Shown: positions 7,234-60,455 of the stretch, piece by piece
Layout of the letters: the number at the start of each line of letters is the position of its first letter
Numbering within the stretch: the first letter of the stretch is position 1
Assembly: GCA_028279595.1 (NCBI GenBank)
Contig: JANQNK010000019.1
Coordinates: 1-64,000 of the forward strand
Source: Thermoplasmatota archaeon
Lineage (GTDB): Archaea; Thermoplasmatota; JAKEGO01
Length of the DNA: 64,000 nucleotides
Direction of reading: 5' to 3'
The notes under the pieces: generated by a model
Seen by the model: the letters and a program-made list of their open reading frames with translations, nothing else
What the model was told of the DNA's origin: nothing
The model's database searches: none
Position numbers and translations under genes: made by a program

Positions 7234-7342
7234 GCACACCATCCCATCTGTTGGGGGGGACTTCCTCACTGACCCCCCCACTTCTATTTTTTCCCATGGT
7301 GCGATTCTTATATACTGGTGAACATTCTGCCATTGCCTTACT

Positions 7343-7417
7343 GGGCCCGTAGGGTAGCTTGGCCGATCCTCGTGGCTTTGGGAGCCATGGACTCCGGTTC
7401 AAATCCGGGCGGGCCCA
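7343..7417 (+). tRNA. tRNA-Pro(UGG), integration target
   Basis: Acceptor stem GGGCCCG/CGGGCCC-A, anticodon arm GTGGC-TTTGGGA-GCCAT, T-loop TTCAAAT, upstream TTATATA box. Confidence 0.95.
7400..7417 (+). repeat. attL core CAAATCCGGGCGGGCCCA
   Basis: Identical to 21930-21947. Confidence 0.93.
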
Positions 7418-7425
7418 CTTCCTCT

Positions 7426-8418
7426 CTAGCGTCCGTTTTCGGCACTTTCAGAGACATTTCTGCCATTATCAATCACCTCGTTGTTTATATGAGATTGTTG
7501 GGGACCCAAAGACGACAAAGCATCAGTCACCTTTGCGAGCCCATTTTGAACGTCATCAAAGTTGATTCCAAGGTACCGAATCGTCGTTTCGGTATTGGAA
7601 TGACCTAGAGCATAACTCACTGTAGCAACGTTCTTCGTTTCGTCGTACATTAGACGACCGAAGGTTCTACGGAGATCATGAGCGCTGAAATCGAAACCAC
7701 ATCGTTTCGAGATTCGTTTAATAATCAAATCAATTGAAGATCGTTTGTAACCTTTCAACTGATTCTTAGACCGATAGATTATCAATTGACCAGAATCCTC
7801 AATACCCATTCCGGGATGAGTTGCTTCAATCAATTGTTTTTGAAGGTCTCGATATTGAAAATATATTTTGAATGTTTCCTTGGTCCAAGGATTAAAAGGA
7901 ATATCACGTTCTTTTCCATCACGGTATCCCTTACCGCGTACACGAATACGATTCCTGTTCATATCGATGTCGTCGATACGAAGTCGAAGAACATCAACAC
8001 GACGAAGTCCTAGAAGAACCATAAGGTGAACTACCATACGTTCAGTTGGAACTTGTGATTCTCTAAGTAAGGTTTTAACTTGGGGTGTTGTCAACCATCG
8101 ACCAACATGTTGATGTTTCGGAATCAGTATCTTATATTTTTGAAGTACATCATTTCCAAGGAACTTCAAATAGATCTTCAAAACGCGATGATGCCAATTC
8201 ACACGGCCGTGCGCATCAAGAACAGCACCAACATCTTCAATGGTCCATGATTGTGGTAATGATAAGTTTAGTTTGTCTGAAGCTTCAAGCAATCGATGAA
8301 TTACAGTTTCATATTCGTGTATTGTTGTCTCGGCAACTCCCTTTGCGCGTAGCTCTCGTTGCCACCGTTCTACATCGCTCCAACCCGACAGATTCATTGG
8401 GACCACTTCAACGGGCAT
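7426..8418 (-). CDS. int: Tyrosine recombinase/integrase
   Basis: Catalytic residues in LGLRR (R), RGKG (K), HDLRR (HxxR), LGHS (H) and TIRY (Y); ends 8 nt from attL. Confidence 0.95.
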   Translation of the reverse strand: MPVEVVPMNLSGWSDVERWQRELRAKGVAETTIHEYETVIHRLLEASDKLNLSLPQSWTIEDVGAVLDAHGRVNWHHRVLKIYLKFLGNDVLQKYKILIPKHQHVGRWLTTPQVKTLLRESQVPTERMVVHLMVLLGLRRVDVLRLRIDDIDMNRNRIRVRGKGYRDGKERDIPFNPWTKETFKIYFQYRDLQKQLIEATHPGMGIEDSGQLIIYRSKNQLKGYKRSSIDLIIKRISKRCGFDFSAHDLRRTFGRLMYDETKNVATVSYALGHSNTETTIRYLGINFDDVQNGLAKVTDALSSLGPQQSHINNEVIDNGRNVSESAENGR

Positions 8419-8453
8419 CTATATTCAGCAATCCATTATCACTATATATATGT

Positions 8454-8725: not shown

Positions 8726-9397
8726 ATGACTACGGTATTCTACTGTATGAACAAGCGACAGCCATTAATATTCTTCAGCCATCATCATTCCGAGGCAACA
8801 TTATTAACCCCAGTAGTTAATATTCTTGAATTATATGGATTCAATTGCTTTCTTGCTCATCTTCATATTAGCCCTTCAAAAAACTGGAAGCACACAATCC
8901 TAGAAAATTTGAAAAACTGTGATTTTTTTATCCCATTCCTCTCAAACGAATTCAAATCATCTCCATGGTGTGATCAAGAATCAGGGATCGCTTATGAAAA
9001 AAATAAAGTCATTATCCCGATTATTGTCACGCTCGAACCATACGGTTTTCTATATGAAATTCAAGGAATTTCCTATAAATCAAATCAAGCAAATTTACCA
9101 AACGCTATTCTTGATGCAATTGAAACCGGATCATTTTCCCTTCGTTTTCATCTCATTCAACACCTAAAATTTAGTGATTCTTTTCAACAATCTAATCTCA
9201 TAATATCACGTATTCGTAAATATTCAAGATTTAGTATAACCGAATTAGAATCAATTTTGAATGCAATATTTAAAAACCAACAAGTCAACGAAGCATTCGA
9301 AACAAAAAAACTAATTAAGAAAATCATCGTTCAGAATTCACACGACATTTCCGAATATCAAAAAAACAAACTCCTAAATATTGAAAAATCAATCTAA
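8726..9397 (+). CDS. TIR-domain protein (putative NADase or signal-producing enzyme)
   Basis: IFFSH...GFNCFLAH..I.....W...I...L..CDFFIPFLS..F..SPWCDQE.G.A; putative catalytic Glu retained; helical C-terminal extension. Confidence 0.88.
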   Translation: MTTVFYCMNKRQPLIFFSHHHSEATLLTPVVNILELYGFNCFLAHLHISPSKNWKHTILENLKNCDFFIPFLSNEFKSSPWCDQESGIAYEKNKVIIPIIVTLEPYGFLYEIQGISYKSNQANLPNAILDAIETGSFSLRFHLIQHLKFSDSFQQSNLIISRIRKYSRFSITELESILNAIFKNQQVNEAFETKKLIKKIIVQNSHDISEYQKNKLLNIEKSI

Positions 9398-9508
9398 TAA
9401 TCAACTCCATCTTACATTCAAACATATATTCACAGCTTTAAATAACAAGCAAATCCCGTCTAATTCAAATATTCAATTCAGGTACCTCGAGGACTCCTTT
9501 AAATTATA

Positions 9509-9667
9509 TCACATCACTTCTTTGAAGGACGTGAATTGATCACTGCCGCAGTCAGGACAACCGTTCTGGCGATGCTGACAAAGATAACAGATTACGGTAC
9601 CGCATTTTACACAACGGACGTAACTTGCATAGTAACTTGAAACGTTGCAGCTAGTACATCTTACCAT
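9509..9667 (-). CDS. Small zinc-finger protein with 4 CxxC motifs, 52 aa
   Basis: Manual translation MVRCTSCNVSSYYASYVRCVKCGTVICYLCQHRQNGCPDCGSDQFTSFKEVM. Confidence 0.7.
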   Translation of the reverse strand: MVRCTSCNVSSYYASYVRCVKCGTVICYLCQHRQNGCPDCGSDQFTSFKEVM

Positions 9668-9758
9668 CAGTTCACGAAGCGTCAATGAGAATTGGTCATA
9701 TCTCGATTATGACCTTTTTTTTACGCACGTTTTTACTAGTTGAGGAAATCAGTCAATT

Positions 9759-9923
9759 ATGAGTGAAATTTACATCGGATTCATTTGTCCCAAATGTGAA
9801 TTCGGACTCCAATTCCTTTACAAACACTACGAGGAAGCTCTCCGTAGAGATGTAGTCCTAGCATGCCCTAAGTGCCTATTTGAATTCGACGTAAAACAAC
9901 TCAAACAACTAAGAACCAAGTGA
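9759..9923 (+). CDS. Small zinc-ribbon protein, 54 aa
   Basis: Manual translation MSEIYIGFICPKCEFGLQFLYKHYEEALRRDVVLACPKCLFEFDVKQLKQLRTK (two CPKC motifs); GAGG upstream. Confidence 0.7.
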   Translation: MSEIYIGFICPKCEFGLQFLYKHYEEALRRDVVLACPKCLFEFDVKQLKQLRTK

Positions 9924-9930
9924 ACAATAT

Positions 9931-10218
9931 CTACATTGCTGTATTAAAATAATCATCTAGAAGTATTCGGAATATATCCATAGGATCCTCAAGAAAATCT
10001 TTTAACTGTTCTATATTCATATAATCTACTGAACGTATTCCAATATGATCTCCAATCTTGATCTGTACAGACACCTCACTGGTATCTTTATTATAGATGA
10101 CTCTACCGATGAAGACATCTCCATGATATTGGACTTCTGCACGGTATCCAAGTTCTGTATCGCTCTCGAGTTTGGATTTCGCATCGACGTCGACGAAGAA
10201 TCCTTCAGATTCTGACAT
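9931..10218 (-). CDS. Hypothetical acidic protein
   Basis: 95-aa ORF with globular composition, convergent with the zinc-ribbon gene. Confidence 0.55.
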   Translation of the reverse strand: MSESEGFFVDVDAKSKLESDTELGYRAEVQYHGDVFIGRVIYNKDTSEVSVQIKIGDHIGIRSVDYMNIEQLKDFLEDPMDIFRILLDDYFNTAM

Positions 10219-10467
10219 TCAATCAAGACCAGGAGGCGCTATTGATATATCTAATTCCTAACCATTTCTTTACGAAGTCGATTGGTTCGCTCAAAATCAC
10301 AATTATGCAAAATCCTTGATCTCGATCCTTTCCTTGCTTGATAGAAATTGAACGTGAGATCTCGAACCATTCAAGTGGCCTTCTCAAATTCATAACCAAA
10401 GTGACGCACATTGCTAGATATGCGACATTCTTAAGTAAATGTCAACATTAGTACTCCTGGGATCAAC

Positions 10468-10680
10468 ATGCCAAAGGATCAAACTAAGTTTAAAGACATG
10501 ACAGGAAAACAAGCCTGGTTATTTGGAACAAGACTATATCTCGTGGGTATCGGCTCTGCGATTCTAGTAGGCGGGATCGTGCTTGGATTCATCCATGGAT
10601 TTACGCCGATAACTATTGGGCTCAACGTCACAATAGGATTGATTTCAATCGGATTGGGTATTATTTCAAAGGTAGATTAA
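10468..10680 (+). CDS. Small 2-TM membrane protein
   Basis: Two hydrophobic helices; abuts the next ORF. Confidence 0.65.
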   Translation: MPKDQTKFKDMTGKQAWLFGTRLYLVGIGSAILVGGIVLGFIHGFTPITIGLNVTIGLISIGLGIISKVD

Positions 10681-10896
10681 ATGACAAATGAATTATCGAC
10701 GGAAAGATGCCCAGAATGTTCAAACCATCTCGAAGACGGATACTTTGTAAAATCAGGTTATGCATTAGGTTGGTCAACTACACCTAAAGGATGGAAAGCG
10801 GAAGAACTTCTTTTCCACTTTTCTGCGCGACCTAAGAATAATTTCGTTAAGGCAAAACGATGCTCTACTTGTAGAATTCTCATAGTTCAATATTGA
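10681..10896 (+). CDS. Zinc-ribbon protein (DUF6487/PF20097-like pattern)
   Basis: CPEC...LEDGY......W...A.RC..C.I. Confidence 0.7.
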   Translation: MTNELSTERCPECSNHLEDGYFVKSGYALGWSTTPKGWKAEELLFHFSARPKNNFVKAKRCSTCRILIVQY

Positions 10897-10929
10897 TCTA
10901 ATTGTGTAACAATCTCCATAAGATATATT

Positions 10930-11469
10930 ATGGCTATTATCATTCCAACGCATATGCAATTACTAAGCTGTGGGACCATTATCGTGTTATCAATCCTGAT
11001 CATCGGATGTGTTGATCCTACATCATACGATGAAACCGATCCTGGTTACATGTATCACGGAGCAAATTCTTCCGTTAATTTCACAAGTATTGGAGATACG
11101 AATTATCTTGAATACATTGACCAGTTTATCTCCGAGCTAAGTAAGAATATCACTGTAGAATTTGACTCAGACGTTAATATCGTTTGGATCCATGAATCTA
11201 ATCGGACAACATATATTCAAGGAGCTCTACACTATCATAACTATACGAATCATATTGAAAGTCGGATATTCGGCTACTATGTCGGTGGTGACCGATACAA
11301 ACCATACAATACAATGTCAAAATGTCAAGCGAATATTACGGAAGAATATTCTCAGGATCTATCGCTTCTTCGATACCATGTTCGTGTTATCCTGAACGGA
11401 ATTAAGGAAATCTATCATCATGATACGCAAATTGAGGATGAACAGTTTTGGAAAGTATTTACAGGATAA
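10930..11469 (+). CDS. Putative lipoprotein or secreted protein
   Basis: Hydrophobic N-terminus ending in lipobox-like IIGC. Confidence 0.6.
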   Translation: MAIIIPTHMQLLSCGTIIVLSILIIGCVDPTSYDETDPGYMYHGANSSVNFTSIGDTNYLEYIDQFISELSKNITVEFDSDVNIVWIHESNRTTYIQGALHYHNYTNHIESRIFGYYVGGDRYKPYNTMSKCQANITEEYSQDLSLLRYHVRVILNGIKEIYHHDTQIEDEQFWKVFTG

Positions 11470-11557
11470 TCTCAATCAATTACATTTTGCTTAACCCAAC
11501 AACGTCAATTAATCGTTATGATGAATTATCAAGAAGTTGTTATTAGTATTAACAACT

Positions 11558-11794
11558 TTATTTCGAATATAGTTTACAGGATATTATTTTCATCCGTTCC
11601 TCATTTTCAGTTTTAACAGCCATAGTTGCCATTATACCTGCTGTTGATGCGAGAAATGACATTAAAATTAACAATAATAATCCTAGTTTACCATCACAAT
11701 CGTAGACATATGCAGAAATCATTCCAAAAATAAAAGAAACAAGTAATAATCCGCTGGTCAATAACCACATATATTGTGATAAATACCCAACCAT
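11558..11794 (-). CDS. Small 2-TM membrane protein
   Basis: Two hydrophobic helices; GGGGTG RBS-like motif upstream. Confidence 0.6.
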   Translation of the reverse strand: MVGYLSQYMWLLTSGLLLVSFIFGMISAYVYDCDGKLGLLLLILMSFLASTAGIMATMAVKTENEERMKIISCKLYSK

Positions 11795-11861
11795 TAACTA
11801 ACACCCCAGTACTAGTCCTCACAAGCTAATATGAGAACTGTATATTTAATATTAACTAATA

Positions 11862-12071
11862 TTAACAATAATATTTCTTAGCAATAAACGGTGATACGAT
11901 CAATATTGCCCATCCAATCATTATTATAAATAAAAATAACGACCCACCAATCCATACTTCTAGTAATGCTCCAAGGATCATTACGACTAACCCGAGAATC
12001 AAAACAATTCCCGGAACTTGAAAAAGAATCGTAGTTATTGGTACTTTCTCCATCTTGTTTGCCTCTGCCAT
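11862..12071 (-). CDS. Small 2-TM membrane protein
   Basis: Two hydrophobic helices; GGTGGTG upstream. Confidence 0.6.
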   Translation of the reverse strand: MAEANKMEKVPITTILFQVPGIVLILGLVVMILGALLEVWIGGSLFLFIIMIGWAILIVSPFIAKKYYC

Positions 12072-12629
12072 TTCACACCACCGCCTTCTCCCAATTTATT
12101 ATTAGCTGAAAATTATATAAACCTGCCGGTGACATAACAACTTGCTGATCCTTCTGCTCTTTCTCTTCGCTTAAGGGATTAGCGGTCCTATACTGCCTAT
12201 CGATATTTAAGTTTGTAACGTTATAAATACTTATCGCCGATGATCGTTGATTATCATTCTCAATAAGACCATCTATCACACCTATCATATCTGAGCCCCC
12301 GCATTCGATAAATCCACATCACTAGATTATCTAGTTCTGCGAATCTCTAATCGAATCTTATCATCTATCAATTTACACCATATATAATTTATGTTCACAA
12401 GTATAAATTAATATCAATAATTCAACATTCCTTTAAACAACATCTCATTTTCACATATACATTCCCGTTTTAATAATTAATCGCCATTTTCTGAAATCAT
12501 TTTTTCCGTTATTTATTGTAAATTCAATTCTCGCCAAATAATTCTCAACCTCATTTCTCCAATATATTTGAGAGTTGGCCTGGGTTTTCTTAGATTTTCG
12601 ATTTACGATACATCTATTTCTCTCAACCT

Positions 12630-12940
12630 GCCGACCTTAAATTAGATTCATAGGGGGCCCCTGCGGGGCCCCAGGTCGGCCCCCTCCCCACGGAGGCCGA
12701 GAGGGGCACGGAGAATAGGGAGAAGAATGAGAAGAAGAATTGAAACCGCCCCTCTATTCGGCCTCCTAAAGGGTAGGGACTGAACTGCGTTTTAAAGGTT
12801 ACAGGAAACGGCATCAGAACAAAAATAGACGATAGTAAAGTGCGTCGTTTCACACGGTGAAACAACGCCACGTACTTGGATGCCTCTGATAGACCACTAA
12901 TATCCTCGAGAGCGACGGTAAAGATAGTATGTTACGCCGA
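12630..12940. other. Hairpin-rich non-coding island, candidate rolling-circle origin or packaging signal
   Basis: GCCGACCT/AGGTCGGC arms enclosing GGGGCCCC-TGC-GGGGCCCC; GGAGGCCGA/TCGGCCTCC; 12-bp hairpin at 12842-12868; lies directly downstream of rep. Confidence 0.5.
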
Positions 12941-13003
12941 GGATCACAATCCATGCGATGCATACAGGAGGATTTAATTCCATTATCAAAATCATTACAA
13001 CAC

Positions 13004-14254
13004 CTACGTATTTACTGCATCTGAGACTACTTTATCTCCAACAATGTTTCCAGATTTCTCGACTCTTACCTTTTTCAATTTCACTCCTTGTTTCTTCACT
13101 AACTCTGAATCAAGCTCATAGTAATACTGGCCACCAATTAATTTCGCTCTCATTAAATGTCTACTTCCATAGCTCCTATACTTATCTGGAACCTCATGTT
13201 TTTGTACGTATCCACGTCGACGCAAAGTATCCCAAAAACGAACCTCATCTTCATTCACGGCGCCAACCTTCAAGGCGATCTCAAGAAGATCATCGTTGAC
13301 ATCCGCACTACCATCGATGATGTCCTCGATTGGGAAACTCTCGTGGATAGGATTTACGAACTTGGTCCAAAGACTACCCTTGGTGTAAGCAGAATCGAAC
13401 ACCGTTCCAACCTGAGAACTGACCTTGCGTTTCTTGAAGTTGTCTCCTTCTATCATTATCTCGAAACGGATCCTGTCAAGTGCTTTAGCGTATATCTTAA
13501 CCTTGCCACGGTTGTTGAACATGGTACAGATGACGGAGTTAGATTGGAACCGTGGGTCTGAATGGACATTGACTGCGAAGCCTAACTTCGAGGCGAGGTC
13601 TACTCCTTGGTCATAGAAGAATTTGATTATCTCACGCATGACAGCTGTTGCGGTGTGGTCCTCGAAGATGTAGTCCTTGGCAACCTCTACGTGTTTGATG
13701 ACCATCTGTTCGTGGAGCCTTTGAACGTCCATGTATTCGGGGATCTCGAGGCCTACCTTCTCAAGACCGGTGACCATCATTCGATCAACGTCATACCATT
13801 TCGGTAAAGAGGCACGATTGTCATCCATTAACTTTTGTTCTGAAACGCCGGCCAAGTCAACATCAATGAAGTTGTCAGATTTCATCACAATCCGTTTGTA
13901 CCCGTCATAGTCAAGGTCCAGACCATAACCCGCTTTCTGATTGCGGATAGCATTACCCTGAATCCTTAGTTGACTGTTCTTCATCTGGTAGTATCCTTCA
14001 ACGCAAGGTTTTGCCTTCGATGTTGCTGCACCCCATCCATGACGTGCATAGTGCTTCCGGAGGACATCGGGTTGGTATCGGAATTTAGGTAATCCCGATC
14101 TTGACATTTGGTAGAATAGGTCAGAGTTCTTGGTCAAATATTCACGGAGGGCCTCAACGTACTCATCAAAGATGATATCGCCCTGGCGTACTGCTCGCGA
14201 GTAGCCAAGGACAATGACATTGTCTATCAAAGGAGGCGTTGAGGACCACTCCAT
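13004..14254 (-). CDS. Putative rolling-circle replication initiator, Rep_trans/gpII-like
   Basis: Motif order typical of Rep_trans: N-terminal IDNV, IKHVEVAKD (cf. RxDxAxD), VKIYAK (candidate catalytic Tyr), RIRFEI; GGAGG RBS. Confidence 0.65.
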   Translation of the reverse strand: MEWSSTPPLIDNVIVLGYSRAVRQGDIIFDEYVEALREYLTKNSDLFYQMSRSGLPKFRYQPDVLRKHYARHGWGAATSKAKPCVEGYYQMKNSQLRIQGNAIRNQKAGYGLDLDYDGYKRIVMKSDNFIDVDLAGVSEQKLMDDNRASLPKWYDVDRMMVTGLEKVGLEIPEYMDVQRLHEQMVIKHVEVAKDYIFEDHTATAVMREIIKFFYDQGVDLASKLGFAVNVHSDPRFQSNSVICTMFNNRGKVKIYAKALDRIRFEIMIEGDNFKKRKVSSQVGTVFDSAYTKGSLWTKFVNPIHESFPIEDIIDGSADVNDDLLEIALKVGAVNEDEVRFWDTLRRRGYVQKHEVPDKYRSYGSRHLMRAKLIGGQYYYELDSELVKKQGVKLKKVRVEKSGNIVGDKVVSDAVNT

Positions 14255-14274: not shown

Positions 14275-16773
14275 TTATCTTCGTTTTCTAGGTAGCAACA
14301 ACAACAGTATCAGAAGTCCTATGAACACATATAACAGGAAGTTACCTCCGAACATATTCTCCAAGGCAATGTCAACAGTTCCAGTTATCTCCTTAGAGAC
14401 GCCTTCGATGTTAGTCACTTGAACATCGACCTTCTCAGTACCAACGGTATATGGTATCTTGAGGGTCATCGTGATATTAACCGCTTTACCGCCGGCGACA
14501 AGGATCTCATTGTCAATGTCCTCAGTGGTAGTGTATTGGAGGTCAGTGTCAATCTCGACGAAGAACGTGTCCTGAGCGTTCCCGCGATTATAGATCATCA
14601 AGTTCATGACTTCAACATTACCTGGTGAAGCGTCGATGCGTTTTGGAATTAAATCGATGGCGAAACTGTATGCAGGAACGAAGTCATCGGAGGTCCAATT
14701 CTGGGCTTCTATCGAGACATTGTAATACGCATCTTCAGGGTCCTTCACCTGAACTGAGTAATTGCCCCAGTAATCAGTGGTCTGTTGATAGTTTCCGTCC
14801 TGGTCGAGAATAAACACTTCAACGAATGCTTGACGATTAGTTGTTCCAGTACCGATGAGAACTGCACCGTTGTCGTAGACGTACACAGTGGCGTTAGAAT
14901 CGCCATTATAACGCTCTCTGGTGTAGCCTTGAGCCGTGTTAGTGAAGAGGACGTAGTAGCTCGGAGTCAGTTGACCACCGTCTATGTTCTCTACGGGATC
15001 AAAAGCAAAGATTATCTCGTTGATAACAAACGAATCGAAGTTCGTGAGGATGATAGAGTTCTCTGATTCAGTGCCATCTGTTACAGGGGCCCGGAACTGT
15101 AATTTGTCATTGAAATCGTTATACGTCAATGCAACTTGACAAGAGTCTCCATCAGTGCCGGAACGACCGACAAAGGTCTGGTTCAGAGAACCATTCGGAG
15201 GCTCTTCCTGTGTAATGGGAGGAAAGTTCAGTTGGACAGGTATACGATCCCGTGAATACGCCCAATTCGATGTAGATGAATTGCTTGGAGGTACAGGGGC
15301 AGGACCTACCCAACATATCAACAAGAAAGTGCCGGAATAGGAACCTGGAGCTTGTGTTGATGGAATCGGTAGTTCGTCGACAGTGAACTTCTTGTTGTTA
15401 CCTGCTAGGATTGGGAATGGATCTAATGCACCGTGACCAAGACTGTCAAGATAATCGAAATTGACCTCCTCGTTCATGTATTCACAAAGTTTTGCATCTT
15501 CGAAACTGATTGGTGTACCAGGACCGAGCATCGGATTCATTGTTATTTCAATCGAATCAACGTCGTATGTTCCTTCATTCTTGATACGGACAGTATCTAC
15601 AGCATCATTATCCTGATCTGGAATCAGGGTTCCATAACCTAATTTCGTCTTCGCATTATTCGTTACTTTCTCTTTGTACTCCATTGTTAAAAGAAAGTCA
15701 GCACCGCTGGAATATTCTCCCTGGAAGATGTCAACGAGATTACTGTTCCCGTATGCATCATTCACTCCTTGCACTTCGACGTTACAATAGTAATCACCTT
15801 CTGGTTCAGTCGGATCAACATCCTTGATGACACCATCAAATAATAAAAATGCCAAAGGTGCTAGTGGTGTCACGGGAGTATAGGTACACGTAAACTTACC
15901 ATCTGACGCGGTATCATCTTCGATAGGAACAGGAGGTGCCGTAGGCACTATCTGAAAGTTCTGATCGACATAGATGATATCAGCATCCTTGACGAAGTTC
16001 GACACCTCGAAATTGATGTGGTCAATCACAACATTGCCAACGTTTGTTACCTTCAATTGATTGATAGTGGCAGAGGGGCCCTGGACAACTGCCGTTGGAA
16101 AGTTCCAATAGGTTGCCGCATCGGAGATCTCCACTGTTATCTGAACGTTCTCTGCAACATCACCGCCAGATTCACCCTGCGGAGGAGGATCATCACCTCG
16201 AGCTAGACCAACAAGGTTGAACATTTCGGGTTTGATATGCATCGATGCTAATGGCGTGTAGTATGCTGTGATTGTGAAGATGTTTGTCAAGTATCCACGC
16301 AATGAGGTTGAAACGTTCAGTAAGAACACACGGATACGAATCGAATCTCCCTTCTCAAGCGACAAACCACCGATCAGGATTGATTGTTCCGAGGCGTAAT
16401 AGCTCTTGTTGTTCAAGTTATGTGTGACCTTGAAACTGCCTTCTGTGAAGAAGGTCGCGAAATCTCCAGTCATGTCAGGGAATTCTACCAGAATAGTAGT
16501 GTATCGTCGTGATTCGTCGGTATTCTTCAGTTTGATTCGATTGTCAGACTTTACATTAACGATTTCTTCGGAACCGTTGTATGCATTACCCCAGTTCTGA
16601 GTAAATCGAAGCATGTCACTACCGTCAGAATACGTTAGAACAAGGCCTCCACCATCGGCCTTGACTAATCCAACTAGCTCGAGCAAGGGAGTGAATCCCA
16701 TAAGTACGATGACCCCAACAAGAGTCAACGCTACTATCTTCCTACTTGCGAATGTTCTTTTCATTAATCTCAC
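14275..16773 (-). CDS. Large type I membrane-anchored surface protein (candidate spike/adhesin); start probably ATG at 16764
   Basis: Signal peptide, several beta-rich Ig-like modules, C-terminal TM followed by PRKRR; GAGGTGA precedes ATG at 16764. Confidence 0.75.
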   Translation of the reverse strand: MRLMKRTFASRKIVALTLVGVIVLMGFTPLLELVGLVKADGGGLVLTYSDGSDMLRFTQNWGNAYNGSEEIVNVKSDNRIKLKNTDESRRYTTILVEFPDMTGDFATFFTEGSFKVTHNLNNKSYYASEQSILIGGLSLEKGDSIRIRVFLLNVSTSLRGYLTNIFTITAYYTPLASMHIKPEMFNLVGLARGDDPPPQGESGGDVAENVQITVEISDAATYWNFPTAVVQGPSATINQLKVTNVGNVVIDHINFEVSNFVKDADIIYVDQNFQIVPTAPPVPIEDDTASDGKFTCTYTPVTPLAPLAFLLFDGVIKDVDPTEPEGDYYCNVEVQGVNDAYGNSNLVDIFQGEYSSGADFLLTMEYKEKVTNNAKTKLGYGTLIPDQDNDAVDTVRIKNEGTYDVDSIEITMNPMLGPGTPISFEDAKLCEYMNEEVNFDYLDSLGHGALDPFPILAGNNKKFTVDELPIPSTQAPGSYSGTFLLICWVGPAPVPPSNSSTSNWAYSRDRIPVQLNFPPITQEEPPNGSLNQTFVGRSGTDGDSCQVALTYNDFNDKLQFRAPVTDGTESENSIILTNFDSFVINEIIFAFDPVENIDGGQLTPSYYVLFTNTAQGYTRERYNGDSNATVYVYDNGAVLIGTGTTNRQAFVEVFILDQDGNYQQTTDYWGNYSVQVKDPEDAYYNVSIEAQNWTSDDFVPAYSFAIDLIPKRIDASPGNVEVMNLMIYNRGNAQDTFFVEIDTDLQYTTTEDIDNEILVAGGKAVNITMTLKIPYTVGTEKVDVQVTNIEGVSKEITGTVDIALENMFGGNFLLYVFIGLLILLLLLPRKRR

Positions 16774-16775
16774 CT

Positions 16776-17693
16776 CTATCCGAGTAATCGATATTGATAC
16801 AGATCGACCTGGTCCTCATCGTCACCTTGTATTGGTGTATCCCAAGTCGGATACTTCGTTATCTCAGGTTTCGTGATCTTTGCCGTTGTACAAAGACGGA
16901 AATCCGGCAATCCGAACATTTGACTCAACCAACTCAAGTCGAGCCATGTCTTCGTGACTGCACGCATCTGTGTCCATTTCGCTTCTGCATTACCGTCATA
17001 ACCTTTCGCCTTTACATCAAGGTCAGAAGGATCCTCGAGTTCCTTCAATGGGATGAACAGCTCAACAGAATCATAGTAAACATCGTCTCCTTCATCGTAC
17101 ATATCTGGAACAGGGAAGCGAACGAAGAATATCATCGACCAAGACTGATGAGCGACAGTGTTGAAATCGCCAAGAGCACTCGCTTGTTCAACATGAATGT
17201 AAAATGGAAGAACAGTGTTCATACGGTCCCCAATATCTTCAAGGACGAACTCTCCACCATTCGTTATCGGTTTTGGTGTCTTTTCTGCTTCTGAAACGAA
17301 ATCGGTATTCAAGTCACCTATCACAGTTCCTGTGGTTTTCCGCTCTGCCTTGATGATCCTACCGTTAAGAATGTATTCTTCAGTCTTACCTACACGATTC
17401 CCGACCATTGCATCAAATTGATGACGGTAGATTACCGTAGGTTCAGGGGTATGATCATTGCCGATCTCTCCCCAGATCTTCCAATCTTGGACCTTAGCAG
17501 AACCTTCAGTTCTAATGTCCGATTCGACATGAACACTGAAAGGTATTCGGATTAACATACCGACTGCCCCTGCACTTTTCACCGGCCTACGGTCATCAAA
17601 AAGATTAGGGGGGCCATCTCCGCTGAGACAGCCCATCGATACGAATCCGTTGCTGACTACCAGCACAACTAAAGCCAATGCGGTTAGACGCAT
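16776..17693 (-). CDS. Putative lipoprotein (candidate virion envelope protein)
   Basis: Signal peptide ending MGCLS (archaeal GC lipobox); GGAGG RBS. Confidence 0.7.
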   Translation of the reverse strand: MRLTALALVVLVVSNGFVSMGCLSGDGPPNLFDDRRPVKSAGAVGMLIRIPFSVHVESDIRTEGSAKVQDWKIWGEIGNDHTPEPTVIYRHQFDAMVGNRVGKTEEYILNGRIIKAERKTTGTVIGDLNTDFVSEAEKTPKPITNGGEFVLEDIGDRMNTVLPFYIHVEQASALGDFNTVAHQSWSMIFFVRFPVPDMYDEGDDVYYDSVELFIPLKELEDPSDLDVKAKGYDGNAEAKWTQMRAVTKTWLDLSWLSQMFGLPDFRLCTTAKITKPEITKYPTWDTPIQGDDEDQVDLYQYRLLG

Positions 17694-17738
17694 TTTCCGG
17701 CCTCCATTCGTATCTTACGTGTTGTCAGATGGTAGGGC

Positions 17739-18587
17739 TCAGAAACGTCTACGTCCTGACCCTCCTACTCCACGAGCAAGTGGTTTCCCAACGTACGATG
17801 CCAGGAAGAACACCACCATCACGCTAGCAATGATGAGTACCACAAGTATCAGTACTGCAGGGAGTACAAGCATTCCAAGGAACAATGCGCCAATCACCAC
17901 GATTCCGAGTACACCACTGACAAGAGGACTCAATCCAAGCAGGAATATCAGAACAACTCCGATAATGAGTCCGAATATCAGAGTGTAAAGGAGAGATCCG
18001 CCGAGGTAATCTGCGTTCAGGTCGAAGAGATATGGGCTATCGCTATCACCATCTCCCTGAACATCAACTGAGGTGTTACCCTTGACGTAGATGGCCTCGT
18101 TCTTGATGCCATCGCCCTTGATCTCATAGAAGCGCTTGTTCTCGACAAGGATCTCACTAATACCAGAATCGTCAGTAATTCCACGGTAGGTACAGTTACT
18201 GCCCTCGGCAGATACAATGAAATCCTCGACAGGATATCCATTCTCGTCCTCTACGTACACCGATAAGGTAACGTAGTCGTTGAGTGTGTAGGATTGGTTC
18301 TCATCAGTATAGATGATAGTAGAATCACCCTTACGATAGTCGATGAGTTTCCAAAGACCCTTGTCTAATTCGAATGATGCTTCATTCGTGGTCAAGGTCT
18401 TCGTTTTGTTCGTACTTCCTACACCATCATCCCAGTCGTAATCACGAACTGTGATTGGTCTATCAGCACCTGAACTATAGATGCTGACTGTGTGAGCTTC
18501 TGCGGTCACACTCGCCACGATCGACATGCAAAGCAATAGGGCAACGAGCCCTAGTCCAACAGCGTTCATTCGCTTCATATCTTTCAC
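17739..18587 (-). CDS. Secreted-domain membrane protein with three C-terminal TM helices
   Basis: AEA signal peptidase site, beta-sandwich-like segment, hydrophobic C-terminus and basic tail. Confidence 0.75.
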   Translation of the reverse strand: MKDMKRMNAVGLGLVALLLCMSIVASVTAEAHTVSIYSSGADRPITVRDYDWDDGVGSTNKTKTLTTNEASFELDKGLWKLIDYRKGDSTIIYTDENQSYTLNDYVTLSVYVEDENGYPVEDFIVSAEGSNCTYRGITDDSGISEILVENKRFYEIKGDGIKNEAIYVKGNTSVDVQGDGDSDSPYLFDLNADYLGGSLLYTLIFGLIIGVVLIFLLGLSPLVSGVLGIVVIGALFLGMLVLPAVLILVVLIIASVMVVFFLASYVGKPLARGVGGSGRRRF

Positions 18588-18901
18588 GTCTCCATTTCAT
18601 CCAACGATATCGGTGCTGGAACCGTCCATACTACGGCAATGAATTCCTCAATCAACATCTGAAAAAAGAGACGAACATCATCTCCGGCGACGTCCACTCT
18701 TCTTGAAACGACGTTTCCGTCCCTTCCCTCGATAACGGCGCTTCTTCCGGTACGTTGTGGTCTTGGACTTCCATCTACCTGACTTCCCGGTGCCAGCTCG
18801 GAATCTGCCCCGAGGACCGTAGGGCTGACGGAACGAACCTCTGACTCGTGTACCCTTCCGCAGTCTCTTACTGCGAGTCTTTTTATACGCCAGGGTATCA
18901 C
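18584..18901 (-). CDS. Hypothetical protein (element operon)
   Basis: GTGA overlaps with both neighbours. Confidence 0.65.
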   Translation of the reverse strand: MIPWRIKRLAVRDCGRVHESEVRSVSPTVLGADSELAPGSQVDGSPRPQRTGRSAVIEGRDGNVVSRRVDVAGDDVRLFFQMLIEEFIAVVWTVPAPISLDEMET

Positions 18902-19074
18902 CCCTTTAGGTTAAATTTTGCCATTTTTGGCAACATTCTCAGTGTTTTCCGTTTCCGGCGCCGTTCCATTCCATTCCGTAACCGCTCCAATAACAACTGA
19001 CGCAATGAGTCGAAGAATAATCGATATAATATGAAAGAAATAACAAACATAATCGCCCAATATTCGAATTTCAT
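18898..19074 (-). CDS. 58-aa single-TM protein with highly basic C-terminus (not in ORF track)
   Basis: MKFEYWAIMFVISFILYRLFFDSLRQLLLERLRNGMERRRKRKTLRMLPKMAKFNLKG; 4-nt overlaps at both ends. Confidence 0.7.
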   Translation of the reverse strand: MKFEYWAIMFVISFILYRLFFDSLRQLLLERLRNGMERRRKRKTLRMLPKMAKFNLKG

Positions 19075-19403
19075 GCCATACCACCATATACGGAGGCGTA
19101 GGCGTCCATCTTCGCTACGAGATCATCAAGAGCATCAATTCGAGCGAATACATCTGACCTCGAGATTGTGCGAACATTCGTGACAGAACGATAGATCTCA
19201 CTGAGTAGAGTCCTACGATAAGGATTCAAATCTTCTACTACCATATCAACAAGGCAGAGTGATGAAGCAAGGGCGTGAGCCCGTTCTTTCATTGCAGTAA
19301 GTTCGGGATCCATCACGCGATAACGGGACATCTCAACACGGGTTGCACGATATTTTCGAAATATTCGACGACGGTGTACAGCCGGATCCTTCATTTGTTT
19401 CAT
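19071..19403 (-). CDS. Hypothetical helical protein
   Basis: ATGA overlap with the upstream ORF; GGAGG RBS. Confidence 0.7.
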   Translation of the reverse strand: MKQMKDPAVHRRRIFRKYRATRVEMSRYRVMDPELTAMKERAHALASSLCLVDMVVEDLNPYRRTLLSEIYRSVTNVRTISRSDVFARIDALDDLVAKMDAYASVYGGMA

Positions 19404-20035
19404 GGAGTATCGGCCTCCCGGAATGCGCCTTTCTGCTGAGTAATATTGATACCTTTGATCAGTGAAGATGACGATTTAATTACACGCTCATGGTACTGAA
19501 CTTCCTTGTCAAGGTACTTGCCCATGATGTGAATCTTCGCTTGATCCACATTGGCGAATGTGATGCCACTATGATTGACATATTGAATAGGACGGACCAT
19601 CGCCTTTTCGTACAGGTGAGGGCCGAACTTGATGATTCCACCATTAACGGAACGTTCTGCGATCACTACGAAATTATTGGTTTTGTCGTTGTCAGAATAT
19701 ACAGCAGTCTCGACGGTCATTGCAAAACGCATTATGAAATTAATGCCGACCATTATAGACATGACCTGGCCGAAGGTGTACAACATATGGATCTCGTCCA
19801 TTGTAATCGGTTCGTATGGACCGTAGTAATGATGTTCCCGAATCATTCCTCGAGGAAGCATGTAATACTGAGCGAAGAGAAGTACAGCACCACAGAAAAT
19901 GAATGGCATCAGTGAGACGATAACTCGTTTTACCATCTCTTTTCTAAATGCCATGATGTACTCTGCATGTTCTTTGTCGAGGCGCTCTCGAGAGTCTTCA
20001 AAGCCAGGAGTCTCACCCTCGACGATGAAGAACAC
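19400..20035 (-). CDS. 2-TM membrane protein
   Basis: Two hydrophobic helices followed by a soluble domain; overlaps the ATPase stop. Confidence 0.7.
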   Translation of the reverse strand: MFFIVEGETPGFEDSRERLDKEHAEYIMAFRKEMVKRVIVSLMPFIFCGAVLLFAQYYMLPRGMIREHHYYGPYEPITMDEIHMLYTFGQVMSIMVGINFIMRFAMTVETAVYSDNDKTNNFVVIAERSVNGGIIKFGPHLYEKAMVRPIQYVNHSGITFANVDQAKIHIMGKYLDKEVQYHERVIKSSSSLIKGINITQQKGAFREADTP

Positions 20036-20753
20036 CTCCTTTCAATTCGTGGACCGAGAACATATTCTGAAGGATGTCTCGACCCCATGCAGAACCTCGT
20101 AATGCGTAAGGAGACCGATGGCCCACTAGTAAGAAAACGATTCCTCGTTTCCTTCCCTGAAAAATTAGATTTGGGACCATGCTGTTCACGTCGTGACGCT
20201 CTAGACCCTCGGTCTCCTCGAGAACTACTATCGTCCCGAAACGATCTCGGTGAATCTCGTTGGAACGACGGATGAGTGAGGTGATAAGAAGCACTAATTG
20301 AAAGTGGCTATAGTCTGGGTGAGGGGTTATCCGAATCCGTGATTCTAGATTTAAAACCTTGATGATATCTTGACCGTTGAATAACGGGGAAAGCTTGTCA
20401 ATTGCACGGTTGAAAGCATCAGATTGGGTCTTTGACAGACCGTTCAAATCAAATGATTCTCCACGTAATCTAGGAACGAGATAATGCGTGTATTGTGCTT
20501 CAGTACGAAGAAGAGCTTGCACTAATTCTACGTTAACCATTGATCTAGGTAGTCCAACATTAACACGACGACCACGGTATTCGTTTTCATAGTCAAATAC
20601 AACAACACGATGAGGTGTCGAATTCAATAAATCTTGAACGTAACGGGTCTTTCCAGAAGCAACCTTTCCATATAAATAGTGAGCATAACCACGTTGTCCA
20701 CCAACTTCAATTTGTGATAATTCATTCAATACAAACTCAGGGAGTTGATTCAA
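20013..20753 (-). CDS. Minimal FtsK/HerA-superfamily ATPase (A32/P9-like packaging or extrusion motor)
   Basis: Walker A GKVASGKT, VVVFDYENEY, Walker B IVVLEE, arginine finger GRKRG; probable TTG start at 20753 overlapping the upstream TGA. Confidence 0.82.
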   Translation of the reverse strand: MNQLPEFVLNELSQIEVGGQRGYAHYLYGKVASGKTRYVQDLLNSTPHRVVVFDYENEYRGRRVNVGLPRSMVNVELVQALLRTEAQYTHYLVPRLRGESFDLNGLSKTQSDAFNRAIDKLSPLFNGQDIIKVLNLESRIRITPHPDYSHFQLVLLITSLIRRSNEIHRDRFGTIVVLEETEGLERHDVNSMVPNLIFQGRKRGIVFLLVGHRSPYALRGSAWGRDILQNMFSVHELKGGVLHRRG

Positions 20754-21157
20754 CCGAAAACCCCCTGAGAGGGACGCAGTATCCGGATGAAGGGGACCAC
20801 CCAAATAAAGTTTGCAAGTGCTCTGCGCCCCTCGTTGCTTGAAATATGGAAGAGTCCGGCCTTGCGAATGTCGCCCTCACAAGGTGGAAATTCCCGGCAC
20901 TCTTCCAAAGAGAAAAACGATTTCAGTTTACTTAATAGTTGTGTGTATATAACCACACAGTTTGGGGGATACGCAGGGACCAATATTGGTATTCCGGATT
21001 TCAGGTGGCGGACGTATCCCCCGTTGTGGGCTTTTCGGAAGAGAACCCTTAGGGGTGACGATGCGTTTTTCCAATGGGTACAACAATCTATCTCTTCCGA
21101 TAAAGGAACGACATGGATTGACGTATATATACGTTTTAGAAAAAACCGGACAATCAA
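20750..21157 (-). CDS. Hypothetical protein (probable TTG start, 135 aa)
   Basis: AAGGAGG precedes TTG at 21157, which overlaps the upstream stop; its own stop overlaps the ATPase start. Confidence 0.55.
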   Translation of the reverse strand: MIVRFFLKRIYTSIHVVPLSEEIDCCTHWKNASSPLRVLFRKAHNGGYVRHLKSGIPILVPAYPPNCVVIYTQLLSKLKSFFSLEECREFPPCEGDIRKAGLFHISSNEGRRALANFIWVVPFIRILRPSQGVFG

Positions 21158-21345
21158 GGATGATGGCCTCCTTGAGTATAGGGGAGGATATTCGAAGGAT
21201 GGGACGCATCTTTCAAAATCATATCCTCCCCGACGAACAAAGAACCTTGACGTTTTGGAACTCCAAGATACAATCCACATCTCGGGCAGTAATCGTGCGA
21301 TTCACAGTCCCTGAAACCACAACAAGGGCATAGAATGCAAGCCAC
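21154..21345 (-). CDS. Small zinc-finger protein
   Basis: CPCCG and CPRCG motifs. Confidence 0.6.
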   Translation of the reverse strand: MACILCPCCGFRDCESHDYCPRCGLYLGVPKRQGSLFVGEDMILKDASHPSNILPYTQGGHHP

Positions 21346-21374
21346 GAAACCACCAATAAAAATGGGGAGGGGGA

Positions 21375-21818
21375 TTACTCCCCCAGAGTTGCCCTCTCTG
21401 CCATTGTCTCCGCTGCGACTCGGACATCATCCAACGACATGACCGCCATCTCGTCGTAGGTCCGATTGTCGGTGCCCTTCCTCTTGTAGATATGAGCTAC
21501 AAAGAGATCCCCTGGCTCAAGGTTTCGCATAGCATCATGCTTGGCATAGCGCATATGATTCATCTCATAAACGCTATTCACCGGTTCACCCGGACGACCT
21601 CCGATGAACCAGATCTTCGCATCGGTCTGGGGAGTAGACTTCTTCTGTCCATCCTTCTCCCACTCACCAGTGCTGATCTCCTTCGAAAGGAGACAGGCAA
21701 AGTAGAACCCTACGTTGGGTGTTCCCATGTACATCGGGATGTCCGTAGGGATATCACCTACTTCCATACCAAAGAGTTCCGCTGCCGTTCCAATCACGTT
21801 TTCCGCTGCCGCTTCCAT
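21375..21818 (-). CDS. Hypothetical protein, candidate OB-fold ssDNA-binding protein
   Basis: GGAGG RBS; beta-rich LEPGDLFVAHIYKRKG...TY pattern reminiscent of phage SSB OB folds (inference). Confidence 0.6.
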   Translation of the reverse strand: MEAAAENVIGTAAELFGMEVGDIPTDIPMYMGTPNVGFYFACLLSKEISTGEWEKDGQKKSTPQTDAKIWFIGGRPGEPVNSVYEMNHMRYAKHDAMRNLEPGDLFVAHIYKRKGTDNRTYDEMAVMSLDDVRVAAETMAERATLGE

Positions 21819-21929
21819 ATTTTCATTCCTCCAATTATGCTGTCTGTCCTAACTCAGAAGGACCGTGATTCATGAACTCCTCAAGCACTCTGGCATACTC
21901 CGAAATGACCGCCTCAAAATCATTAGTCA

Positions 21930-21947
21930 CAAATCCGGGCGGGCCCA
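21930..21947 (+). repeat. attR core CAAATCCGGGCGGGCCCA
   Basis: Identical to 7400-7417. Confidence 0.93.
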
Positions 21948-21976
21948 TCGTTACTCATTGATCTATCATAGAAGAT

Positions 21977-22212
21977 GGGCCCTTCCTCTCCTCGAAATAA
22001 TCCTAGATCCGATTAAAGCATTTCGAGGATCCGGGTATTCCAACTGATTATTCCAAGCGGGCCCACTCGCCCTCTCGTGGAACAGGTCTTCATTAAACTA
22101 ACATCATGTTCCACGATCCGGGAATAATGCGAGGCCGATCACTTCGGGCCCACTCGCCCTCTCGTGGAACAGGTCTTCAATAACCTAGCATCATATTCCA
22201 CGATCCGGGAAT
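21977..22212. repeat. Tandem hairpin repeat array (three units, 81-87 bp period)
   Basis: 22058-22125 and 22145-22212 are 68-bp copies with 4 differences; a diverged unit starts at 21977. Confidence 0.85.
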
Positions 22213-44522: not shown

Positions 44523-44983
44523 GTGGGCCCGCTGAGACCCGGGCGCTTAAGACCTCATTGATCTAGAATTCTAACGCACGGGTAAGGCGGGGCTACGATT
44601 GTCAGAGTGCAAGAATTAGAGTGGGCTTGCCGAGACCGGACGCTTAAGACCTCATTGATCTCCCGTTATAACGTCCGGGCTAGATGGCCCGTAGGGTCAT
44701 CGAGATTCGACCTAGATGAAGCTCCGCTTCATCAGGGTTTGTGAATGGTCGACATATCGAATACAGCATTCACAAACACTCTGTTGAAGAGCGACTTCTT
44801 ATCAAGGCGGGCCCGTCGCTAATTAATTAATTAGGAGTGGGCCCGCCGAGATTCGACCTGGATGAAGCGGAGCTTCATCAGGGTTCGTGAATGATCGAGA
44901 ATTCAATTACTTCATTCACAAACACTCTGTTGGAGAGCGAGTTCTTATCAACGCGGGCCCATCGCTAACTCATTGATTCTGAG
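44523..44983. repeat. tRNA-Pro 3'-trailer repeat array (two ~96-bp A units and two 146-bp B units)
   Basis: Repeated GTGGGCCCGC.GAGA tRNA 3'-end fragments and shared hairpins. Confidence 0.85.
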
Positions 44984-45098
44984 TGGGCCCGCGGAGATTC
45001 GAACTCCGGTATCCAGCTGTCCGTTTCATCGGAGGGAAGCGGCTCCCCTCTCTACGAACCCCGAGCTGGGAGGATGGACCAAGCTACCCTACGGGCCC
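44984..45098 (-). tRNA. Intron-containing tRNA-Pro (probably GGG; 40-nt intron)
   Basis: Aligns with the tRNA-Pro at 7343; CCAGC/GCTGG anticodon stem enclosing 47 nt. Confidence 0.82.
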
Positions 45099-59255: not shown

Positions 59256-59552
59256 TATCCCTCAGCCCTCAACTAAATACACACCGAATATAAACGTTGT
59301 GGTTAACATGTCACAACAATTTAAAGTTCTAATTAAATAATTAAAGAATTAATTATGAATAGATTGGTTAATAACCTTTATATTATTTTACTATTTTTTT
59401 ATATTTCTCTTAATTTTCCACGATTTTAGGCGATTTTCGGGGTTGAAATCGGCCCGATTTCGGGCCCTTTTTCGGATGTCTGTCTACCCCCAAGGTGTTG
59501 TGGTGTTTCTGAATAAGAGACAGATGTCCGTTAATTGACGAATTCCAAGCCG

Positions 59553-60455
59553 CTAGAAGGAGATCTTTCCGCCCTTTTTGAGCTCTTCGAGGGTCTTGTC
59601 CTCCACTTTTTCGAGCTCCTTCTTGTCCGTGAGGGCCTTGTCGACCGCCTTCGCCTGGTCCTTTATGACCTTGCGGGCCTGCTGTCTCTCGTCGCGGTCC
59701 TCCTTCTTGAGCGAGAGCACCTTCGAGCGCATCTCGAGGGCCTTCTGATGCTGGGCATCGGCCTTCTTCTTGACCTCGATGAACTCGGCGTGCTTCTTGT
59801 TGGCCTCGATTATGAGATAGCTGACGGAATTGTAGATCTCGACGACCTGCTCGTGGAACGTCTGGGAGTCCTGGTAGTACTGGACCACGTAGGTGTGCTC
59901 CTCGTCGGCCTTCTTGAAGAGGTCGTCTATGGAGGCGTTCAGGGAATCGAGGTCCTCTATGATGCTCTCCTGGTCCACGAGGTTCTTCTGCATCTCGATG
60001 TACTGGTGCATCTTGTCCCTGATCTTGTCTATGAGGTCCTTCTCGGCGGACAGGGACATGGGTACGGTCTGCTGCTTGAGCTCCAGGGACTTGATCTCGG
60101 CGTCCAGTACCTGGACGTCCTTCGGGAGCGCCCTGTTGAGGTTCTTGTTCCTCTCCCGCTTCTCCTCGATCATGGACCTGGCCTTTGACTGGTACTCGTT
60201 CCTGCGCTTCTTGTGCTCGCGCATCTTGCGGACGAGTGCGTCCCTCTCGGCCTTCAGCTTGTCAACGCCCGCCAGTGCGTTCTTCCTCTCCTCGTTGAGG
60301 GCGTCCCTCTCCTCCCGGAGGAGCCTGGCATCGGCGTTCAGCTCGTTCCGACGGTCGATAATGGACTGGTGGACCTTCTCGGCGCTCTGTATGGCCTTGC
60401 GCCTCTGCTGACCCTTGTCGTCCTCGGCGTCCTTCTCGCGTTTCCGTCGTGGCAC
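59553..60455 (-). CDS. Conserved archaeal coiled-coil protein
   Basis: Continuous heptad pattern, QQTVPMSL..EK.L and the C-terminal KKGGKISF; GTG at 60455 follows a TATA-like box. Confidence 0.8.
   Translation of the reverse strand: MPRRKREKDAEDDKGQQRRKAIQSAEKVHQSIIDRRNELNADARLLREERDALNEERKNALAGVDKLKAERDALVRKMREHKKRRNEYQSKARSMIEEKRERNKNLNRALPKDVQVLDAEIKSLELKQQTVPMSLSAEKDLIDKIRDKMHQYIEMQKNLVDQESIIEDLDSLNASIDDLFKKADEEHTYVVQYYQDSQTFHEQVVEIYNSVSYLIIEANKKHAEFIEVKKKADAQHQKALEMRSKVLSLKKEDRDERQQARKVIKDQAKAVDKALTDKKELEKVEDKTLEELKKGGKISF

Follow-up and report, generated by a model that had tools for sequence, protein, structure and literature searches.

The locus analyzed here raises the question of whether a small reading frame, made whole only when an integrated element leaves its tRNA gene, is a working gene and, if so, what its product does. 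The window (the whole 64,000-nucleotide stretch of DNA that was analyzed) corresponds to contig C7 in a Thermoplasmatota genome that is 86% complete, and in it a 14,530-bp low-GC element lies between exact 18-bp direct repeats (Table 1). The stop codon of its tyrosine integrase gene, int (7426-7428), falls 8 nt short of the att core. An earlier note on this DNA, made from the sequence alone, had described a Shine-Dalgarno (SD) site and an ATG on the minus strand inside the 3′ end of int, opening a frame that runs through the att core, and this description is exact at every coordinate. The ATG (7466) lies 40 nt inside int, within its last 14 codons and in another frame, and 16 element-encoded residues precede the core. 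In the integrated state the frame runs antisense through the tRNA and ends after 42 aa (stop 7338-7340). In the excised circle it ends after 53 aa (stop 21835-21837), with GGAGG (21828-21832) following 2 nt on and the ATG of the next gene (21818) 16 nt on; these lengths and positions, too, hold as the note gave them. Its proposal that integration splits a separate small gene also stands, as int stops before the core and stays whole.

Table 1. Features of the integrated element and its surroundings (positions in the window).
Feature	Position	Strand	Remarks
tRNA-Pro(TGG), integration target	7343..7418	+	Left intact
18-bp att core, integrase-proximal copy	7400..7417	+	3′ end of tRNA-Pro; on the minus strand encodes codons 17-22 of the junction gene
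Junction gene, 5′ half (22 codons including the core)	7400..7466	-	59% identical to the C14 sister, but the stretch also encodes the int tail
Tyrosine integrase (int), 330 aa	7426..8418	-	Intact; PF00589, E 3e-22; XerA-like by PDB search
SD site of the junction gene (within the 3′ end of int)	7472..7479 (GAGGTGA, 7473-7479)	-	Kept in C14 and C19
TATA box	8443..8450	-	32 nt before the int start
Divergent ribbon-helix-helix (RHH) regulator, 56 aa	8523..8693	+	Family match below cut-off; beside int also in C14 and C19
Hairpin-rich region after rep, candidate replication origin	12616..12940	-	Folding z -5.6 for 12560-13004
Replication initiator (Rep), 416 aa, last gene of the block	13004..14254	-	Possible TBP-like fold; resembles Rep_trans / Rep-Arvir
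Co-directional block	14275..21280	-	P-loop ATPase (20013-20804); small membrane proteins; secreted or anchored proteins of 282, 305 and 832 aa
63-aa ORF, second operon gene	21154..21345	-	Two CxxC motifs
Short G/C stem, then T5, after the 147-aa gene	21357..21388	-	Possible partial terminator
RBS (21828-21832) and first operon gene, 147 aa	21375..21832	-	No homologue found; possibly ssDNA-binding (weak lead only)
Junction gene, 3′ half (31 codons and stop)	21835..21929	-	Amphipathic helix; predicted integrase-binding part is circle residues 27-45
18-bp att core, far copy	21930..21947	+
In-frame ATG beyond the far att, host side (37-aa frame)	21946..21948	-	Weak SD; probably accidental

The SD site of the junction gene pairs over 9 nt with the 3′ end of the host 16S rRNA (-14.1 kcal/mol), and a site of this kind precedes only 0.15% of the ATGs in the genome. 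By the codon usage of the element, the frame after the core scores +10.3, and the other five frames score -4 to -23. The earlier note had cautioned that a run of 31 open codons can arise by chance, and with p = 0.13 for such a run alone it was right to do so; conservation decides the matter instead. A 37-aa frame beginning on the host side of the far att could also be translated in the integrated state. Its SD, however, is weak (-5.0), and a start like it is absent from six of seven relatives, the seventh having a TTG without an SD. The host side of the far att carries an array (21948-22212) in which two 68-nt repeats and hairpins start with fragments of the tRNA-Pro end, and this array is the source of the accidental ATG at 21948.

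Other parts of the window were also noted. Beyond the RHH gene, the element carries AT-rich cargo on mixed strands (8726-12288), including a stand-alone TIR protein (PF13676, E 2e-17), three small zinc-finger proteins and small membrane proteins; a TIR homologue stands beside int in one relative (L028). Outside the element, a 146-nt tandem repeat with tRNA-like ends (44701-45098) adjoins a divergent tRNA call resembling tRNA-Pro (44983-45061), and a long minus-strand gene of many diverged repeats (51400-59900) probably encodes a large surface protein. Low-threshold ARAGORN output was treated as noise.

The same genome holds three further elements with related integrases (C9, C14 and C19), and these allowed the frame to be compared. 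The C19 element has an intron-containing tRNA-Trp as its target and an integrase 44% identical to that of the window, and its circle contains a 57-aa junction ORF with its own SD. The post-core halves of the two peptides align with a score of 47, against 16.9 ± 3.7 for shuffled sequences (0/20,000 shuffles reached it), while comparisons in other frames scored 14-22. Identity by codon position is 14/20/9 of 32, which places third positions at chance, and the last four residues are the same although all four third bases differ. Because the match is confined to one frame, with saturated third positions and identical ends despite third-base changes, conservation shows the circle-form protein to be under selection, and the 42-aa integrated product not. 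The C14 element (G000 C14:112203-117733) is a decayed sister at a tRNA-Arg, with int broken by a stop codon and a truncated rep 84% identical to that of the window; its far end abuts a tRNA-Leu and offers two possible att matches. It keeps the SD, the ATG and the N-terminal half, and its C-terminal half is not homologous (p 0.46); owing to its decay and ambiguous far att, we did not rely on it. In C9 the att is in the other orientation and there is no such junction ORF. Among relatives, the integrated products vary from 20 to 98 aa and are tRNA- or host-derived. The earlier note had suggested that integration swaps the C-terminus of the protein. The split itself is confirmed, but two working tails are not; because the integrated 42-aa form looks like junk, the split looks like an on/off arrangement.

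Relatives of the window integrase were gathered from metagenomes and 400 genomes, and those with both att copies were circularized in silico. The earlier note had proposed conservation of the frame in related elements as its own test, and the frame is kept, both in the C19 homologue and more widely: in about 19 of the 21 circularized Thermoplasmatota elements, a frame opens at the int side and passes through attP. The exceptions are C9 and L206, which has a broken int and a stop in the core. Nine elements have a separate short ORF with 30-36 post-core codons (window, C19, L133, L185, L186, L187, L194, L204 and L131/L139), with a chance p of 0.05-0.09 for each of the eight tested. In five elements the start is fused in frame to a HUH-type Rep (L073, L082, L175, L176, L178), and in one it overlaps the Rep start; in the tRNA-Tyr clade, a short junction ORF overlaps the TTG of Rep in two elements (L076, L195). 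The int ORF itself crosses the core in three elements, and two have other, longer ORFs (L086, L197). At the int end, an SD and start open to the core were found in 12 of 25 non-redundant sequences versus 1.7 expected from shuffles, an excess that is overstated as kin are not independent. The joined gene also occurs naturally in six metagenome contigs (L027, L046, L049, L080, L091, L096), which may be circles or the inner junctions of tandem insertions. When held out, five of these six matched a profile of Methanomassiliicoccales-side peptides at p ≤ 0.001. One pair shows both states in the frame of the window: L044, integrated at a tRNA-Pro, and L046, joined, are 98% identical over int. Several searches came back empty: the exact joined-junction pattern had no match among viral contigs, an alignment of the two far-end halves (window and C19) found no homologue as a query, and a junction-peptide search of 400 genomes gave four weak matches at chance level. 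A phage collection yielded distant bacterial integrases only and no Rep match, and a scan of genome contigs for integrase relatives likewise gave only bacterial integrases.

The short peptides appear to comprise at least two types in Thermoplasmatota, between which homology is not established. A second group shares a motif of its own, and the window and C19 peptides have the same place, length and helical pattern but score p 0.12-0.45 against the profile of the other group; we provisionally rejected a single peptide family. A derivation of the peptide as the detached tail of att-crossing integrases also found no sequence support (p 0.07-0.48).

Several side observations concern the relatives. 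In the tRNA-Tyr clade (e.g., L073:4062-5407 with 10934-10972), a HUH-type Rep gene directly follows the far att with its frame open to the core, and the int-start/Rep products fused by excision would be 418-453 aa, possibly from an att-split Rep gene. We make no claim that Rep is always fused across att in this clade, since the frames agree in just 5 of about 11, close to the expected one-third; no junction-Rep link was resolved in L060, L084, L095/L098 or L100. L175 and L176 (G256:C1, about 1,587,700-1,611,700) are two elements in tandem at a tRNA-Tyr whose inner junction rebuilds an attP-like join, so that the int of the first element could activate the Rep of the second with both still in the chromosome. 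Same-clade integrases in L039, L072/L067 and L191 carry their own ORF across att, a tail swap like that of Mx8, and the tail predicted for the L072 circle is the natural joined form in L067.

On the far side of the junction, the genes from 21818 to 13004 lie on one strand with short gaps or overlaps. A TATA box stands 31-32 nt before int in the window, C14 and C19, and by a simple pattern none was found inside int or before the 147-aa gene, so the Rep/structural block probably depends on the int side. The layout fits a joining of int to this operon on excision, for which SNJ2 offers a precedent. The stem and T5 after the 147-aa gene may limit read-through of the long transcript. Among candidates for genes in common with pleolipoviruses, the P-loop protein (NTPase) has weak family matches only, and the small transmembrane ORFs (VP3-like) have none. 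The 832-aa protein gave no PDB or PHROG sequence match, nor one by sequence to the membrane fusion protein VP4; its homologue has weak Ig-like matches. For the 147-aa protein and a 128-aa protein of C19 (E 0.02), we make no claim of homology. In Rep, Y255 and K257 (Tyr-x-Lys, a YxK/YxxK-like motif) are invariant in six homologues. A moderate structure model of Rep (pLDDT 57) resembles TBPs and Rep_trans initiators, all at Z under 8: 4cij (Z 7.5, rmsd 5.1, 188 aligned, the longest of the top matches) and 4cwc (Z 6.5), with TBPs throughout the matches. It also matched the inovirus protein A0A345MNV4 (E 2.7e-3). None of the six Rep members had a Pfam match, to DUF7845 (PF25227) or otherwise, in a library copy that may lack the DUF7845 model. 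The hairpin stretch after rep (12616-12778) is 81-83% identical in C14 and C19 (C14:115210-115353 and C19:190119-190281). Both sisters lack an intact rep and may be satellites replicated in trans by the Rep of the window. Two metagenome contigs carry comparable genes. L124 (SRR20820740, 4184 bp), a second virus-like element from a sample that also holds the C14 locus, encodes a homologue (809 aa, 37%) of the 832-aa protein and, immediately after it, a Rep homologue (33%). L126 (3-902 and 2989-4179), from another metagenome, has a Rep homologue with a series of small genes and a divergent gene that resembles an integrase (weak, E 0.03).

Comparison among the relatives bears on the partner of the peptide. 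The integrase gene is common to all short-ORF elements and is the only such gene. Rep varies in type (Rep_trans-like in the window, HUH-type in L185, L186 and L194), and none was found in C19, L133, L187 or L204; a Cys-rich gene is directly next to the junction gene in L133, L204, L139, L027, L046, L080 and L091. In L185, L186 and L194 the next gene begins about 130 nt after the junction stop, so that coupling to it is not the constant and the protein matters beyond read-through. L079 has the peptide as an in-frame fusion with int (p=0.013), and in the nearest clade of the integrase tree (weak support, 94/88) int itself crosses att. We chose the integrase as the candidate partner because it is the only shared gene, because of the gaps in three elements and the L079 fusion, and because of the att-crossing neighbor clade.

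A complex model of the integrase with the 37-aa far-end frame scored 0.79 in three runs (best of three controls, 0.02), the chain modelled being this frame and not the 53-aa product, with alignments of two to three rows and controls that were not matched amphipathic helices. Contacts agreed to at least 64%, and partner pLDDT was at least 65. Of 80 solved pairs, 58 attain the mark applied, as do 2 of 110 mismatched ones, and in the tool's own test 7 of 44 blind neighbors passed. The conserved part of the peptide is one amphipathic helix of about 20 residues, and the predicted contacts place peptide residues 11-29 (27-45 of the circle protein, all post-core) on integrase residues 111-118, 135, 172-179 and 256-270. 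This surface we take, from what is known of Cre, to be the groove that receives the C-terminal helix of the neighboring subunit (the helix-N groove). Many solved recombinase tetramers have a helix in that groove. It is also just where a model would place any helix by memory of solved structures, and the pass may be of that kind. The window integrase keeps its own C-terminal helix (287-301). On this evidence, we consider the chances evenly balanced that the circle-only helix binds the integrase catalytic domain. In archaeal XerA, the C-terminal helix and its groove switch recombination on and off (PMC3646895).

From these observations we propose a mechanism. The integrase would excise the 14.5-kb element at the tRNA-Pro core, and the SD and start at the int end would thereby be fused to 31 codons from the far end, giving the 53-aa protein, as the sequence shows. 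By the same join, the int-side promoter would probably come to lie ahead of the 147-aa gene, the ATPase, the membrane and surface proteins and Rep, as shown for SNJ2, such that replication and particle genes would probably be off in the chromosome and on in the circle. The new C-terminal helix could, with about even chances, bind the catalytic domain in the groove normally taken by the C-terminal helix of a neighbor in the recombining tetramer. If it does, the filled groove would somewhat more probably hinder synapsis than promote it, and a fresh replicating circle would not be put back. We lean toward inhibition over activation on two grounds: occupation of the groove should prevent synapsis, and mutants of SNJ2 orf26 excise without amplifying. 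After integration the peptide would be lost, leaving the integrase free to excise again. The peptide would serve as a directionality factor does, controlled by nothing but the recombination product itself. We hold this reading overall, of an excision-made integrase modulator that probably blocks re-integration and heads the rejoined Rep/structural operon, at roughly even confidence. It faces one difficulty, as an inhibitor made by the incoming circle must still permit the first integration.

Other explanations were weighed against this modulator. The ORF could be a translational or transcriptional bridge only, which carries ribosomes from the end of int over attP into the first operon gene and protects the mRNA, with the peptide sequence secondary. 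Such a bridge would account for junction stops that overlap or abut the next start in most elements (-4, -1 or +16 nt), for the tRNA-Tyr clade, where the int-side start is fused to HUH Rep or overlaps its TTG, and for the variation in length and sequence of the haloarchaeal CDS (PMC7911831). It would not require conservation at the protein level with saturated third positions, or the motif shared in the second peptide group, and it sits poorly with the 130-nt gaps and with a 147-aa gene that has its own RBS (-9.7); we regard it as unlikely. The same complex model could also be read as a peptide that binds the integrase and stimulates integration, whose loss would lower integrase activity and stabilize the provirus, much as an Mx8-like tail supplied in trans or in a role like that of SNJ2 Orf2/Orf3. 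The L079 fusion and the att-crossing integrases nearby in the tree are in keeping with this, and a XerA-like enzyme could become active once its cis-packed C-terminal helix is displaced; Mx8 offers a precedent for the role. A peptide in the groove should, however, compete with the trans-docked helix needed for synapsis, the integrase keeps its own C-terminal helix, and the peptide has no homology to att-crossing tails, which makes stimulation unlikely in our view.

A role in replication or maintenance, through Rep, a host partner or as a small toxin or antitoxin, has been suggested for SNJ2 ORF26, which is needed for genome amplification and has an HHpred match to HopBA1, and the junction gene here does head the Rep operon. 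Yet the peptide persists with unrelated Rep types and where no Rep was found, and its 53 aa show no toxin feature, so that this role seems improbable. Lastly, an open frame might lie by chance beside a chance SD: the run of 31 codons is unremarkable in itself, the N-terminal similarity of C14 could stem from the overlapping int tail and att arm, and C9 has no ORF. The C19 comparison already contradicts chance, as do the excess of SD and start, the circularized relatives, the profile scores, the joined forms and the codon usage, and we consider it extremely unlikely.

The layout itself is already known. CDS spanning attP between int and a CxxC gene were described in haloarchaeal pleolipoproviruses (Dyall-Smith et al. 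2021, PMC7911831, section 3.7). In the haloarchaeal virus SNJ2, ORF26 is expressed and needed for amplification, and an int-to-Rep operon (int-orf26-orf25...orf19(Rep)) forms only on circularization (Wang et al. 2026, PMC13107129). The earlier note had named SSV1 int and the mycobacteriophage BPs repressor as analogues; the closest are instead these attP-bridging CDS and SNJ2 ORF26, so the idea had already been published. As in the haloarchaeal CDS, the start here is near the int end, the core is inside the CDS, the gene is whole only in the circle, and its stop is beside the next co-oriented gene. The host phylum (Thermoplasmatota) differs, selection on the peptide is shown here, and the gene that follows encodes the 147-aa protein, the CxxC gene coming after it (CxxC is next in many relatives).

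The likeness to SNJ2 is one of layout: the junction gene is downstream of int, and the operon ends in a Rep of apparent TBP fold followed by a conserved hairpin, with both Reps matching A0A345MNV4 and Rep_trans structures. The SNJ2 operon promoter, however, is inside int (start site 419 nt in) and not at the int promoter (PMC13107129), whereas no start site was found in int here by a simple TATA pattern. In place of the co-oriented coiled-coil Orf2 and wHTH Orf3 of the SNJ2 integrase module, a divergent RHH gene is upstream of int; the operon also holds membrane and surface genes, and no integrase-binding role has been proposed for ORF26. SNJ2 orf26 nonsense mutants excise but do not amplify, all eight operon genes give the same mutant phenotype, and the authors favor a toxin-antitoxin explanation (PMC13107129). 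The orf26 phenotype fits unchecked re-integration, but polarity explains it equally well.

In SSV1 and pTN3 (PMC8371274) and in Mx8 (PMC6070905), recombination rewrites a frame that bears on recombination, as here, and the clade of L039, L072 and L191 is of this type; in the window, the rewritten frame is a separate gene and int stays whole. In BPs (PMC3694055), attP is likewise inside a small gene co-oriented with int, but there the integrated form is an active repressor and the viral tail a degradation tag, whereas here the circle form is conserved and has no DNA-binding domain. Directionality factors (lambda Xis, Cox; SNJ2 Orf2/Orf3) share with the proposed modulator the part of a small protein that biases the direction of recombination. 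The peptide differs from them in lacking a winged helix, in its predicted helix mimicry on the catalytic domain and in an existence that depends on the recombination state. The archaeal integrases characterized so far both integrate and excise with no directionality factor (PMC8371274).

Literature searches in an incomplete library found no report of the layout in Thermoplasmatota or of an integrase-binding role. What appears new is the range in Thermoplasmatota, the integrase as the only common gene and a model of a circle-only helix on the integrase; without the binding result, the finding would extend the known range of a switch already published. Far from being peculiar to haloarchaea, the layout spans a whole Thermoplasmatota integrase clade and persists through changes of tRNA target and Rep type. 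For the attP-bridging genes, described in 2021, the mechanism proposed here offers a candidate function that could be examined without a cultured host. Tentatively, attP-bridging genes might constitute a new kind of directionality factor, in which a circle-only helix mimics the swapped C-terminal helix and plugs the groove between subunits. If true, a peptide able to block or release synapsis by tyrosine recombinases would amount to a new principle of control and might serve as a tool, and one integrase clade would put its junction to three uses: a re-tailed integrase, a free peptide and a start codon for Rep.
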